In this document: piece after piece, positions 5,908 through 9,359 of the stretch | How positions within the stretch are numbered: the first letter of the stretch is position 1 | How the letters are laid out: each line of letters begins with the position of its first letter | NCBI GenBank assembly: GCA_964428135.1 | Contig: CAYRXD010000018.1 | Location: 1-20,259 of the forward strand | Direction: 5' to 3' | Source: an uncultured Candidatus Saccharibacteria bacterium | Lineage (GTDB): Bacteria; Patescibacteriota; Minisyncoccia; Phycocordibacterales; CAIJYI01 | DNA length: 20,259 nucleotides | The notes under the pieces: model-generated | What the model was told of the DNA's origin: nothing | The model's input: only the letters and a program-made list of their open reading frames with translations | The model's database searches: none | Position numbers and translations under genes: made by a program

Positions 5908-5997
5908 TTCTCCCTCCTTCTTCTTCGGAGCAATGCCATTCAATACCAAAAGCTTTTCAAAATCGGCGCGTTCGATGGTTTCTACGCGGATGAGTTC
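5908..5997. repeat. 90-bp direct-repeat copy A: near-identical duplicate of the last 90 coding bp of ftsH (copy B = 7404..7493)
   Basis: Aligned by eye: 5908-5997 vs 7404-7493 are identical except for 1 mismatch near the 5' edge. Similarity ends abruptly at 5997/5998 and 7493/7494. Confidence 0.85.
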
Positions 5998-6006
5998 GGC
6001 GAAAAT

Positions 6007-6327
6007 TTATTCTTCAAGCAGCGTAGGAATATCTTGCGCGGAGTGAATAATACGAATTATTTCTAAATACTTTCCTTTTTGGGTTTGGCGGTAAAAGATG
6101 AGATACTTGCCAAAATCTCTTATCGGCAAAACGCGCATACCATCAATCCGCACATCGGTATCTTTATACTGTTTCCCGACAAACGGCATGTCAGCGACTA
6201 TCTGTGCGGTTTCGATAAATGAGGAAATAAATTTCCCTGCCGCATCTCGATTGTCTTCTGCAATATGCCGAGCATGAACAAAAAGGTCTTGTTCGGCTTT
6301 ATCAGAAAGGTAAAATGCTCGTTTCAT
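6007..6327 (-). CDS. parE: Type II toxin, ParE/RelE family
   Basis: MKRAFYLSDKAEQDL...YLIFYRQTQKGKYLEIIRIIHSAQD matches the ParE/RelE toxin fold signature. Start moved to the internal ATG (6327) to remove a 46-nt overlap with the upstream antitoxin, leaving an 11-nt gap, typical of TA operons. Confidence 0.8.
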   Translation of the reverse strand: MKRAFYLSDKAEQDLFVHARHIAEDNRDAAGKFISSFIETAQIVADMPFVGKQYKDTDVRIDGMRVLPIRDFGKYLIFYRQTQKGKYLEIIRIIHSAQDIPTLLEE

Positions 6328-6338
6328 AAGAGGCGCGG

Positions 6339-6596
6339 TTATTTTTTGATGCTTTTCAAAAGTTTCTGCTCCAATACTTTCCATTCCTTTTCGCCGATTT
6401 TTCGCGATTTCGAACTCACGCCTTCCAGCAAAAGCGCGTGTATGCGGTCTTTTTCCTGCTGTTTGATGTCCTCGCGCACAAGACTCCGAACGTAATCGCT
6501 CGGGGTTCCATAGTGTTCTTCTTTTACGCGCCTCTTAATGTGTTCCTTCATTTCTTTAGGAAGCGACACGCTCATGGTTGCTGTTTTCGTAGTCAT
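6339..6596 (-). CDS. parD: Type II antitoxin, ParD-like (ribbon-helix-helix)
   Basis: TMSVSLPKEMKEHIKRRVKEEHYGTPSDYVRSLVREDIKQQEK matches the ParD antitoxin N-terminal RHH consensus (TSVSL...Y.S.SE..R..LR). 85 aa, immediately upstream of parE. Confidence 0.8.
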   Translation of the reverse strand: MTTKTATMSVSLPKEMKEHIKRRVKEEHYGTPSDYVRSLVREDIKQQEKDRIHALLLEGVSSKSRKIGEKEWKVLEQKLLKSIKK

Positions 6597-6628
6597 AATA
6601 TTTGTGAATTATTGCGATTTATTGTTAC

Positions 6629-6656
6629 AGTATATTCTTTTCCGAGAAATCGTCAA
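6629..6656 (-). promoter_or_regulatory. Putative sigma70-type promoter for parDE (TTGACG-16-TATACT)
   Basis: On the minus strand, TTGACG (6656..6651), a 16-nt spacer, TATACT (6634..6629), about 30 nt upstream of the parD ATG. Confidence 0.4.
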
Positions 6657-6929
6657 ATTACTAGATTCACGTACACGCTCACCGTTTAGCTCTTGTCCGG
6701 CGGTGAATTATTATACCACACTTTTTTGATTTATATGGGGTCCCCATTACCTGACCCCATTACCCACGTCGTCTTCCTCGCGAATGCGGGGAACCAGAAA
6801 ATAGCGCCTAAAATCTGGATTCCGTGTCAAGCACGGAATGACGAGGCGTGAGGAGATCTCTCAGTTACTTGACAAAAGATTTAAAATACGATAGTCTGAA
6901 AAACAGGCATAACTTTATGAGGAAAGGCT

Positions 6930-7298
6930 GTGGAAATATACACCGTACCAAATCCCGATTCGCATGAATGGGGAAAAGAACTCGCTAAAACTTTTACCGG
7001 AGAAACCCCGCTCACGGAAATGGTCTTTGAAATACTAGAAAGCAAAAGAGTCGGGCCATTTTGGATTGTTTTGTCGGAAAAAGAAGAAGCTTTTGTTATT
7101 GAGGCCGCAAAGAAATTCATAATGAGAGAGCCCTCTGCTTGGCTTTTGCAATTTTTTCTTGGAAAAATTATTCATGGGGACGACCACTATATATGCGGGA
7201 GATCGGTTTTTGTTTCCTTCATAAACACAGAGAGTCGGCTACCGACGAATGAAAAAACAATTTGCAGGCTGGCTATATGGGTTGATACAAACAAATAG
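6930..7298 (+). CDS. Hypothetical protein (122 aa), GTG start
   Basis: Open frame with AGGAAAGG SD-like sequence just upstream of the GTG. A TTGACA-17-TAGTCT promoter-like sequence lies about 50 nt upstream. Followed by a strong terminator. No family recognised. Confidence 0.5.
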   Translation: MEIYTVPNPDSHEWGKELAKTFTGETPLTEMVFEILESKRVGPFWIVLSEKEEAFVIEAAKKFIMREPSAWLLQFFLGKIIHGDDHYICGRSVFVSFINTESRLPTNEKTICRLAIWVDTNK

Positions 7299-7319
7299 CA
7301 ATATATTTATATTACAACG

Positions 7320-7352
7320 AGGTGGGGCAAACTATGGTTTGTCCCACCTTTT
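7320..7352 (+). terminator. Intrinsic terminator after the 122-aa ORF (also downstream of convergent ftsH)
   Basis: AGGTGGGGCAAAC-tatg-GTTTGTCCCACCT (13-bp stem, one G-U), followed by TTTCTT. Confidence 0.7.
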
Positions 7353-7391
7353 CTTAATCACTGCCGTCTCTTTCTCATAATACTTACTCCT

Positions 7392-9359
7392 TTATATTAT
7401 CGTTTCCCCCTCCTTCTTCTTCGGAGCAATGCCATTCAATACCAAAAGCTTTTCAAAATCGGCGCGTTCGATGGTTTCTACGCGGATGAGTTCTTCGGAG
7501 ATATTGTCGAGGGCTTTTTTGTGGGCGGTGAGGACTTCATTTGCTCGCGCCAATCCTTCCGCCATGATGCGGGAGACTTCAGCGTCTACTTTTGCGGAGA
7601 CTTCCTGCGAGTATTCTTTTTCTCCGCCCGCTCTGCCGTAAATGACTTTTCCGGACGGGTCTTCGAGGGCGACGGGGCCGATTTTGTCGGACATTCCCCA
7701 GCGGGTGACCATATTGCGCGCGAGTGCGGTGGCTACCTGGAGGTCGTTTGAGGGGCCGGTGGTTAGGTCGCCGAATACCATTTTCTCAGCGGCGTATCCG
7801 CCGAGGGCTTTGGCGATGTCGTCCAAAAATTCTTTTCTCGTCTGCATTTTGCGCTCTTCAAGTGGGAGGGTGAGGGTGTAGCCGGCGGCGTGTCCGCGGG
7901 AGATGATGGACACTTTGTGCACCGGGTCGGCGAATTGCAAGACGGATGCGACGAGCGCGTGCCCGACTTCGTGATAGGCGGTGATTTTCTTTTCTTGCTT
8001 CAAAAGGAGGTGGCTTTTGCGTTCAGGACCGAGCATGACTTTTTCGATGGAGCGAATGAGGTCATACTGCGCCACCTTAGTGCGGTTTTCGCGCGCGGCG
8101 AGAATCGCGCCTTCGTTCATGAGCGAGTAGAGATCGGCGCCAGAGAATCCGGGAGTGCGCTCGGCGATGACGTGGATGTTCACGTCTTCCGCAAACGGTT
8201 TTTTCTCGGAGTGGATTTTGAGTATCTGCTCGCGGTCGTCCAAGTCGGGAAGGTCAAGCGTCACGCGGCGGTCAAAGCGACCGGGGCGAAGAAGCGCGGG
8301 ATCGAGCACATCGGGGCGGTTTGTCGCCGCCATGACTATCACTTTTTCCGCCGGCTCGAAGCCATCCATTTCCACAAGAATTTGATTCAAGGTTTGCTCG
8401 CGCTCATCATTCCCTCCCCCGATACCGGTACCGCGCACGCGTCCGACGGCGTCTATTTCATCAATGAAAATAATCGCCGGAGCGGATTTTTTCGCCATTT
8501 TGAAAAGGTCTCGCACTCGGGAAGCCCCCACGCCGACGAACATTTCTACGAACTCCGAACCGGAAAGATGGAAGAACGGCACATGCGCTTCGCCCGCCAC
8601 CGCGCGAGCAAGCAGCGTCTTCCCCGTTCCCGGACCGCCCATGAGCAACACGCCCTTCGGAATCCGCGCGCCGATGTCGAGGAATTTTTTCGGGCTTTTC
8701 AGGAAGTCTACGATTTCTGAAAGTTCTTCTTTCGCTTCTTTCACGCCCGCAACATCTTTGAACGTAACTTTTTGGCTCGCATCGTCCGGGTCAATGATAC
8801 GCGCCTTCGACTGCCCGAAGGTGAACGCCTGCACGCCGGCGCCTTTCACTTGGCGAGAAATCATCCAAAAGAAAAGTAATATGAAGATAATGGGGATCAA
8901 AATCGGCGACAAATTAAGCACCCAAAACCAAAAGCCGGTTTTATTCTCCACCCCTATTCCCGCCGCGGCGATCTCTTCCGGCGTAACGCCGTAATTCACA
9001 AGCGTCTGAGAAAGCGAATCTTCGGATTCTTTCTTGGATTCTTTCTTTTCCTCGTTCTTGAGAGTCACATGAATATCCTCGCCTTCGACGGTCATTTTCA
9101 ACACCTGCCCCTCCCGGACCAGCACGACAAGCTCCGAAAGCGAGATATTCTCCGGCTTCTTTTTTTGCTCATCCGACAAGTACGAATAGAGCGTAATGAT
9201 AATCAGAAATATGAGAAAAGCGCTGATGATATTGCTAAAAAACTGCTGTTTGGGGCTCCATTTCGGCATTTTCATTCCCCCGTTTTTATCGTCGCGCACA
9301 TGGTCGCGGCGGTGATCATGCGGATGATCGTGATGATGGTTTTGTTCGTTGTTGTCCAT
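7392..9359 (-). CDS. ftsH: ATP-dependent zinc metalloprotease FtsH
   Basis: Two TM helices flanking a periplasmic segment, AAA+ Walker A GPPGTGKT, Walker [12 protein letters not shown] region, HEVGH zinc motif. The ORF-track start at 9437 is rejected because it lies inside the terminator hairpin of the upstream gene. Start placed at ATG 9359 ([16 protein letters not shown]...). A later start at 9275 or 9269 (MKMPKW), with GGGGGA upstream, is an alternative. Confidence 0.85.
7404..7493. repeat. 90-bp direct-repeat copy B (native 3' end of ftsH), partner of 5908..5997
   Basis: See copy A. Confidence 0.85.

Follow-up and report, generated by a model that had tools for sequence, protein, structure and literature searches.

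How can a toxin-antitoxin (TA) module become lodged at the end of the essential gene ftsH without destroying that gene, and apparently without a dedicated integrase? The question is raised by an islet of ~1.4 kb in CAYRXD010000018.1, an NCBI contig from a Paceibacteria-type member of the Patescibacteria that we analyzed over its whole length of 20,259 bp and refer to here as the window. The islet carries a ParDE pair and an orphan gene, and it lies between the body of ftsH and a second, detached copy of the ftsH tail. We found the insertion to be genuine: the cargo is foreign and low in GC, and the duplicated 3′ end of ftsH stands on both sides of it. As to its route of entry, we give about even odds (a probability of roughly 0.5) to homology-dependent "C-terminal displacement" at the ftsH tail, by either a single crossover or homology-facilitated illegitimate recombination. 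An earlier, sequence-only reading of this DNA had taken the repeats for the attL/attR scar of site-specific integration. The islet belongs to a known class, that of gene-tail-duplicating insertions or displacement scars with TA cargo, and it offers a small, clean case of accessory gene entry into the tiny, streamlined genomes of Patescibacteria.

The ftsH tail repeat and the cargo between its copies

On direct comparison, positions 5908 to 5997 (copy A) and 7404 to 7493 (copy B) agree at 89 of 90 nt and form a direct repeat with a spacing of 1,496 nt, the sole mismatch (5911 T, 7407 C) being synonymous (GGA/GGG). A repeat search reported the same pair as 5908 to 6006 and 7404 to 7502. All other direct repeats that it found in the window were at most 35 nt long, and those of 26 nt or more reached no more than 78% identity; because the next-best repeats are far shorter and weaker, we do not attribute the 90-nt repeat to chance. 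The sequence-only reading had described a duplicate of the last 90 coding nucleotides of ftsH with one mismatch. The identity held, but the placement needed correction, since the repeat ends 9 nt (codons T-I-I) before the ftsH stop codon at 7392 to 7394. Nor does similarity stop abruptly at 5997, as had been claimed. Copy A extends past this point with C GCC (5998 to 6002), and GCC (6000 to 6002) is the alanine codon of the ISAELIR allele carried by the relatives L084, L087, P0134, P0135, and P0138, whereas the intact ftsH of the window has GAA (ISEELIR) at this place. The ftsH-derived fragment therefore reaches 6002-6003, where it meets the end of the ParDE module with an ambiguous overlap of at most 2 to 4 nt.

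At the other end, copy A closes with GTA TAA (5907 to 5902). The two tails thus read ...EGEV-stop (copy A) and ...EGETII-stop (intact gene), as had been noted before. The further claim that EGETII is the native end does not follow from this, because FtsH tails in this clade are hypervariable: in the window's 90%-identity cluster of six members, the residues following PKK[KR] are EEEAIV, EEEIIA, GEEEV, GEDGVSA, EGETII (the window), and EEESVV. No FtsH other than the window's ends in ETII among these six or among the 120 relatives listed. The difference between ETII and EV therefore cannot by itself tell the native end, and for the same reason we rejected the converse argument that the EV tail proves copy A to be native.

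The copies differ from each other only near the two ends of the homologous segment, at most 4 nt in (GCC/GAA and GGA/GGG), and the 86 nt between these differences are perfect, a pattern expected if the interior of the repeat had been homogenized. Between genomes, the window and L087 or L084 show ~10 synonymous differences across the same 90 nt, and the fraction of identical codons in this stretch is 0.67 to 0.68, compared with 0.65 to 0.70 gene-wide. A DNA- or RNA-level function preserving the 90-mer was rejected on the grounds that synonymous-site conservation is ordinary and that Rfam finds only the tRNA. The differences seen are all synonymous, one between copies A and B and three between the orphan ftsH tail of a related contig (L083, described below) and the functional tail of the window. 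Together with the ordinary synonymous conservation, this indicates that orphan tails track a functional gene. As sequence-level constraint does not account for the identity, either the event was recent or the orphan tail has been homogenized against the functional one; gene conversion may have kept the 86-nt block identical between the two.

The DNA between the repeats is foreign in composition, with a GC content of 41.5% against 52.7% for ftsH and 48% for the entire window. Its gene content is as previously described, namely ParE, ParD, the orphan, and a terminator, to which 330 nt of noncoding DNA between the orphan gene and ParD (6929 to 6597) must be added. The orphan protein matched itself alone among 5.8 billion proteins, and among 1.8 billion cluster representatives it gave one weak match (E = 4.8e-6), a 494-amino-acid protein with no Pfam family at the curated cutoff. 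It had no match in Pfam, NCBIfam, or PADLOC, and its AlphaFold2 model (pLDDT 46) was unusable. Of the promoter and terminator ascribed to the orphan by the sequence-only reading, the terminator was borne out as a strong hairpin (7319 to 7350) that folds at −23.2 kcal/mol on the plus strand and −18.8 kcal/mol on the minus strand (z = −5.9 and −4.8). The promoter is weak: its −35 element TTGACA lies at 6869 to 6874, its −10 element matches at three of six positions, and the promoter scan did not call it. The spacer at 6766 to 6929 had no Rfam match. Overall, no relative was found of this half of the islet, consisting of the T-I-I tail, the terminator, the orphan, and the spacer.

The ParDE module and its recurrence beside an ftsH tail

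The other half of the islet has relatives. The toxin matches the ParE family PF05016 at 51.7 bits (cutoff, 23), and its best solved relative is the ParDE3 complex PDB 6x0a (6x0a_A, E = 7e-6), followed by 7r5a and 7ycs. The antitoxin scores 34 bits against TIGR02606, below the 46-bit cutoff, and its PDB matches are weak (6x0a_a and the ParD of 7b22, E = 0.4 to 0.7). We identified 10 ParE homologues with 66 to 81% identity, all on short metagenome contigs, and fetched nine of their loci on eight distinct contigs (among L081-L090). ParD-ParE adjacency is kept in the window and in all nine loci; the gap is 11 nt, the two genes have a common promoter, and this promoter is conserved throughout the aligned modules. 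ParD is far more conserved across these loci (92 to 98% amino acid identity) than ParE. The predicted system resembles chromosomal ParDE type II TA modules such as ParDE3, which stabilize islands and cassette arrays, in its antitoxin-first operon with its own promoter, its ParE-fold toxin (PF05016), and its siting in variable, horizontally acquired DNA; it departs from them in its subthreshold ParD.

Judging from these comparisons, ParDE moves as a discrete module, independent of the rest of the islet. From the promoter through "GAATAAATTT", it is found in no fewer than four further contexts, with 79 to 84% identical nucleotides, and in every related contig homology to the window halts at 6001 to 6003, 4 to 6 nt past the ParE stop codon. 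The module lies upstream of an M17 peptidase gene in L081, L086, and L088 (in L086 with an HNH nuclease gene upstream) and downstream of one in L082 and L089/L090; in L085 it is followed by unrelated genes, and in L083 it lies near an ftsH tail. On its upstream side, homology reaches 6752 with L083 and 6765 with L088. An integron cassette array was considered and rejected, there being no IntI integrase, no attC, and no hairpin site at the module end 4 to 5 nt past the ParE stop codon. The sole motif shared near module edges is the GGTAATGGGG repeat/palindrome, upstream of some modules only. This palindrome (of the TAATGGGGACCCCATTA type) with tandem GGTAATGGGG(TCA) is also found at L088:72-95 and L083:76-100, and in L083 it coincides exactly with the point where a different TA module adjoins. 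It might serve as an operator or as a signal for recombination.

L083, an independent Joint Genome Institute (JGI) assembly, repeats the end of this arrangement with other cargo. It runs from the end of a ParE-like toxin gene through ParD-ParE (84% identical to the window's), 147 nt, the last 77 nt of a HEPN gene, and an MNT gene into an orphan ftsH tail of ~85 nt, 93% identical to the window repeat, and then a flank. Positions 1404 to 1522 of L083 match window positions 5990 to 5872 at 85%, and its flank (26 to 35 nt) is homologous to window positions 5901 to 5872, with a shuffle p of ~0.0005 for the flank alone. Copy A with its flank, which has this counterpart, behaves like an ftsH end that was displaced. 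After its ParE, L083 continues with "TAAATTTCCAT", which retains the "CCAT" of the M17 start codon known from L081 and L088; therefore, the L083 ParDE came from an M17 context. The junctions themselves differ. In the window the letters are ParE-TAAATTT|TC GCC GAA CTC, and in L083 they are MNT-TAA A|TTC TGC GTG (within 1405 to 1409), ~10 nt further into ftsH; the fragment being longer in the window, a simple deletion could not turn either junction into the other. Copy A also happens to be in frame with the ParE stop codon. A ParE-tail fusion made by stop-codon read-through was dismissed as incidental, as the L083 fragment is out of frame with the upstream MNT gene.

Because the L083 contig passes from cargo into ftsH tail and on into host flank, an assembly artefact is very improbable. 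In such a case, a free 1.5-kb circle or a second strain with the 86-nt block would have been threaded into the chromosome path. For k-mers below ~86 nt, a circle plus an empty site gives the same graph as the integrated form. Against this stand not only L083, with its unbroken run from MNT across the ~85-nt tail to a host flank of the same type, but also the differences between the copies at 5911/7407 and in the adjacent codon; moreover, an element bearing an ftsH tail would exist even so.

The shared ParDE, orphan tail, and flank of L083 and the window, found together although the ParDE modules are only 84% identical, could also descend from an old duplication in a common ancestor (for example, a tandem one of the tail plus downstream TA genes), followed by cassette turnover and upkeep by gene conversion. 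L087 lends this a concrete form, as its ftsH is followed by a HEPN-MNT pair, and the truncated HEPN-MNT before the L083 tail is the junction expected from a tandem of [tail...MNT]. The confinement of mismatches to the repeat edges and the exclusively synonymous changes would fit as well. We nevertheless consider an old duplication quite unlikely. The window's copies differ in their last codons and are followed downstream by wholly unrelated sequence, which led us to reject a simple tandem duplication in the window; the window fragment is ~10 nt longer than that of L083, neither junction being deletable into the other; and one mismatch observed, against ~4 expected, is statistically weak evidence that gene conversion is needed.

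Neither L087 nor L084, the two nearest relatives whose flanks could be read, provides a true empty site. FtsH of L087 is 96% identical to the window's over its C-terminal 402 amino acids, and its intact ftsH is followed after 47 nt by the HEPN-MNT pair; FtsH of L084 is 95% identical over the available 319 amino acids and is followed by a DUF3825 gene. No second tail copy occurs in the 0.8 kb available of L087 or the 3.2 kb available of L084. The flanks after their stop codons show no significant similarity to the flank after copy A (p = 0.13 to 0.9), so we rejected the idea that these flanks are the same. The empty site proposed by the sequence-only reading, tRNA-Pro followed directly by the ftsH 3′ end, was not found at strain level among the matches listed.

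In more distant relatives, the ftsH 3′ flank is crowded with changing genes. Among the best 80 GTDB relatives listed (L001-L080), ~67 carry a tRNA-Ile(UAU) 15 to 3,840 nt downstream of ftsH, in either orientation, and the genes between the two vary (a PemK toxin with a methyltransferase, a GIY-YIG nuclease, DUF4383, or a helix-turn-helix [HTH] protein). In L012:7730-8170, a 39-nt direct repeat (95% identical) comprising the ftsH stop codon and a hairpin terminator surrounds an insert of ~400 nt. The varied genes and the L012 repeat thus mark the ftsH 3′ flank as a habitual cargo site in this class. The L012 insert holds one small antisense membrane-protein-like open reading frame (ORF), a miniature analogue of the window structure in a distant relative. 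The HTH protein, of ~220 amino acids, recurs in the ftsH/tRNA-Ile gap of L008, L017, L029, L039, L048, L059, and L061, and by its "LYWGEG" motif it may be a homing-endonuclease-like protein.

Displacement by homology or site-specific integration

Two routes could have produced a gene tail on either side of foreign cargo, and in outline the anatomy agrees with both equally well. In site-specific integration, an attP carrying an ftsH-like segment of 95 to 103 nt would have been joined to ftsH by a tyrosine or serine recombinase that acted in trans or has since been lost, and the junction of the mobile form would read ParE-C GCC-block-ACGATAATATAA near a recombinase gene. The anatomy is classic for such an event: an identity block of 86 to 90 nt in the 3′ end of a conserved gene with divergence on both sides, a rebuilt gene end, and a cargo of low GC content with a TA module in it. 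In addition, the L083 orphan tail begins ~10 nt from the same position and accompanies a related ParDE, as in an element family using one site, and in L012 direct repeats at the stop codon of ftsH enclose a small insert.

The searches gave no trace of the enzyme or of a mobile form. No recombinase domain was detected by Pfam or NCBIfam in any ORF of the window, no recombinase gene was present on the nine related ParDE loci, and no tyrosine or serine recombinase was found in or adjoining the element in either set. The 20 kb of sequence is compatible with an integrase acting in trans. The checks proposed with the sequence-only reading, for a 90-mer copy beside an integrase on other contigs and for a circular form, turned up neither in sequence searches, nor was there a second copy of the element elsewhere; viral contigs searched with a 44-mer and with ParE gave no match. 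No paper on integration at ftsH came up in a literature search. The ftsH-like segment also begins no more than 5 nt from the ParE stop codon, leaving no space for an arm region, and no attP-type junction was seen. Junction position and neighboring gene differ between the window and L083, and ParDE occurs in contexts without any ftsH sequence. We regard site-specific integration as less likely than the homology route but still as a serious competitor. What remains of the attL/attR proposal is the low-GC foreign cargo within a duplicated ftsH 3′ end; the recombinase is missing, and the cargo is a mosaic. The tRNA-Pro next to the islet was rejected as an attachment site, as the window holds no duplicate of any portion of it and relatives carry tRNA-Ile(UAU) 3′ of ftsH.

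We favor the homology route because there is no recombinase, the cargo consists of independently occurring modules, and the ParE side has no room for an attP arm. The junctions are abrupt, fall right after stop codons, and differ between lineages, which gives them the look of illegitimate joins rather than that of a conserved core site. Finally, the outcome matches the C-terminal displacement of rhs and type VI secretion system (T6SS) loci: in the window, the gene is intact and bears a new 3′ tip, cargo follows, and beyond it lies an orphan fragment in which a short conserved stretch is joined to the old tip. At the cargo/orphan junction there is little or no homology, ParDE homology ending at 6003 and ftsH sequence beginning at 6002-6003.

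Beyond this observed anatomy, we infer the recombination route, gene conversion, and stabilization by ParDE. An integrase-less cassette array of ~1.4 kb would have been inserted between the ftsH body and its original 3′ end, bringing, in this order, a new three-codon tail, the terminator, the orphan gene, and a self-contained ParDE. Circular DNA bearing an ftsH-tail segment could have entered by a Campbell-type single crossover. Alternatively, linear DNA could have been taken up and joined by a homologous crossover in ftsH together with an illegitimate join of the ParE end to ftsH codon Ala(−31). ftsH now ends in ...EGETII-stop and would use the orphan's terminator. The old end (...EGEV-stop, its flank, and a big palindrome) would have been displaced 1.5 kb downstream to terminate the ParDE operon, whose transcript would cross copy A and the old flank before stopping at the large palindrome. 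RecA-dependent loop-out between the repeats would yield a circle of 1,496 bp and restore FtsH ...KKKEGEV-stop; the junction of this circle would read ParE-TAAATTTTC GCC + block + ACG ATA ATA TAA AGG. Post-segregational killing by ParDE would penalize loss of the islet, and its persistence could be due to this penalty on loop-out.

Several points weigh against displacement by homology. The perfect 86-nt block needs a near-identical donor allele or later gene conversion, neither of which was directly observed, and the donor arrangement, an ftsH natively ending in ...ETII-stop followed by the orphan and ParDE, was not found. Measured rates of homology-facilitated illegitimate recombination are low (PMC5361080). 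The window junction offers no more than 2 to 4 nt of microhomology, which is ambiguous. A recombinase site could instead explain why the two lineages have their junctions only ~10 nt from each other in a gene of 2 kb.

C-terminal displacement in rhs loci was reportedly described by Jackson et al. in 2009. In the rhs, contact-dependent growth inhibition (CDI), and T6SS loci, as in the window, the 5′ part of the gene is constant, a new 3′ tip and cargo are inserted, and the old tip is pushed downstream as an orphan with a short conserved stretch, the arrays varying among relatives. Unlike those genes, ftsH encodes a housekeeping protease and not a polymorphic toxin, its cargo is a TA pair and not immunity genes, and the exchanged tip of only two to four codons probably has no functional meaning. 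For rhs displacement and T6SS effector-immunity arrays, an explanation by homology-facilitated illegitimate recombination was put forward (Kirchberger et al. 2017, PMC5361080).

The nearest parallels on the side of site-specific integration are prophages in gene ends. Prophage e14 and phage 21 integrate in the 3′ end of icd in E. coli; the prophages are ~15 kb or more (e14, ~15 kb) and carry their own integrase beside att. Here, too, a housekeeping gene is entered within its 3′ end and receives from the incoming DNA a replacement end that is slightly changed; the original one stays behind as an orphan fragment on the far side, so that direct repeats of gene sequence bracket the element. By contrast, the window insert measures 1.4 kb, has no recombinase, and is a mosaic of independently occurring modules. 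Cis-mobilizable elements (CIMEs), att-flanked islands without an integrase, form a category of ICEberg 2.0 (PMC6323972). The islet resembles them in its direct-repeat flanks, the lack of integration and transfer genes, and the possibility of excision in trans. CIMEs, however, are defined by the att sites of a cognate integrative and conjugative or integrative and mobilizable element (ICE/IME) integrase, and no integrase or related element is known for the ftsH-tail site.

If the homology route is correct, natural transformation with host recombination would appear to be a principal way in which these organisms gain cassettes. A bolder idea, which we consider unlikely, is that the ftsH 3′ end of the Paceibacteria clade serves as a docking site for integrase-free TA cassettes that each carry an ftsH tail. 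Such a cassette would loop out by host homologous recombination, re-enter the ftsH of other cells after DNA uptake, and be held there by ParDE addiction; it would amount to a self-perpetuating "homology-hitchhiking" mobile element without a recombinase of its own. For annotation, the locus implies that orphan tails ought not to be annotated as genes and that att scars should not be deduced from repeats alone.

Feature coordinates and surroundings of the islet

Table 1. Features at and around the ftsH 3′ end (window positions; strand relative to the window)
Feature	Position	Strand	Basis or remark
tRNA-Pro(CGG)	5727-5797	+	ARAGORN; Rfam RF00005, 55.9 bits
Near-perfect 64-nt palindrome, 31-nt arms	5809-5872	both	Repeat search, 100% complementary; RNA fold
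Stop codon of the putatively displaced tail (5902-5904) and ~30 nt of its old 3′ flank ("UTR1")	5873-5904	−	L083 homology
Putatively displaced ftsH 3′ fragment (copy A), encoding (A) + 31 residues	5905-6002	−	Core 5908-5997
ParE toxin gene, 106 amino acids	6007-6327	−	Pfam PF05016, E = 1.3e-13
ParD-like ribbon-helix-helix antitoxin gene, 85 amino acids	6339-6596	−	TIGR02606, E = 1.9e-8; 11 nt upstream of ParE
ParDE promoter, TTGACG, 16-nt spacer, TATACT	6629-6656	−	Promoter scan, 10/12 positions
Upstream boundary of the "long" form of the ParDE module, with palindrome ATGGGGTCCCCAT and tandem GGTAATGGGG(TCA) motif	6735-6765	−	Comparison with L083 and L088
Noncoding spacer with 9-bp hairpin (6819-6839) and −35-like TTGACA (6869-6874)	6766-6929		No relatives found
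Orphan gene, 122 amino acids, GTG start, AGGAAAGG ribosome-binding site	6930-7298	+	Antisense to ftsH and ParDE
Two-way hairpin terminator, common to the orphan and the present ftsH	7319-7350	both	Terminator scan
Putative new end of ftsH, codons T-I-I and stop, without counterpart in copy A	7392-7403	−	Sequence
Copy B, contiguous with the ftsH body	7404-7493	−	Repeat search; direct comparison
ftsH	7392-9359	−	TIGR01241, 775 bits; open frame reaches 9437

The start of ftsH is likely the methionine of MDNNEQ at ~9359, as relatives begin there. The FtsH N terminus (9270 to 9359) contains a His-rich stretch that is found clade-wide and differs in length among close relatives. The nearest GTDB representatives of this FtsH, among the matches listed, are ~70% identical, and all are of the Paceibacteria type.

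On the far side of copy A, tRNA-Pro is part of the host flank outside the repeat and is transcribed convergently with ParDE and ftsH; no second copy of any portion of it exists within the window. The palindrome between tRNA-Pro and the displaced ftsH tail folds at −55.4 kcal/mol (z = −14) and is probably a two-way terminator that now ends tRNA-Pro as well as the ParDE transcript. In length it far exceeds the usual terminator stem. L083, whose homology to the window runs no further than 5872, lacks it at the corresponding position, and none of the 90 fetched loci has it.

Across all sizeable ORFs of the window, Pfam and NCBIfam identified HlyD, an ABC transporter, an S9 peptidase, RhuM, Bro-N, FtsH, an MVP-like protein (MVP, Major Vault Protein), NUDIX, ADP-ribosylglycohydrolase (ARH), NadE, NAPRTase, and a fatty-acid hydroxylase; exact-protein lookups for the window's own genes returned no record. 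Upstream of ftsH lies a block of ~8 kb (9438 to 17370) led by the gene for the MVP-like protein (842 amino acids, 9495 to 12023, minus strand), which has MVP shoulder and Vault_3 repeat domains, and also encoding NUDIX, ADP-ribosylglycohydrolase, NAD synthase, and NAPRTase proteins. The block is missing from L087, where a gap of 52 nt separates a 528-amino-acid gene from ftsH. PADLOC gave no match for the block, which may be an accessory island related to NAD and ADP-ribose. In the left flank, a RhuM-family protein (404 to 1676, minus strand) matches the PADLOC candidate defense family PDC-S05 (E = 2.5e-129) and is adjoined by a small Bro-N domain protein, a pair that suggests another mobile or defense-type insert.

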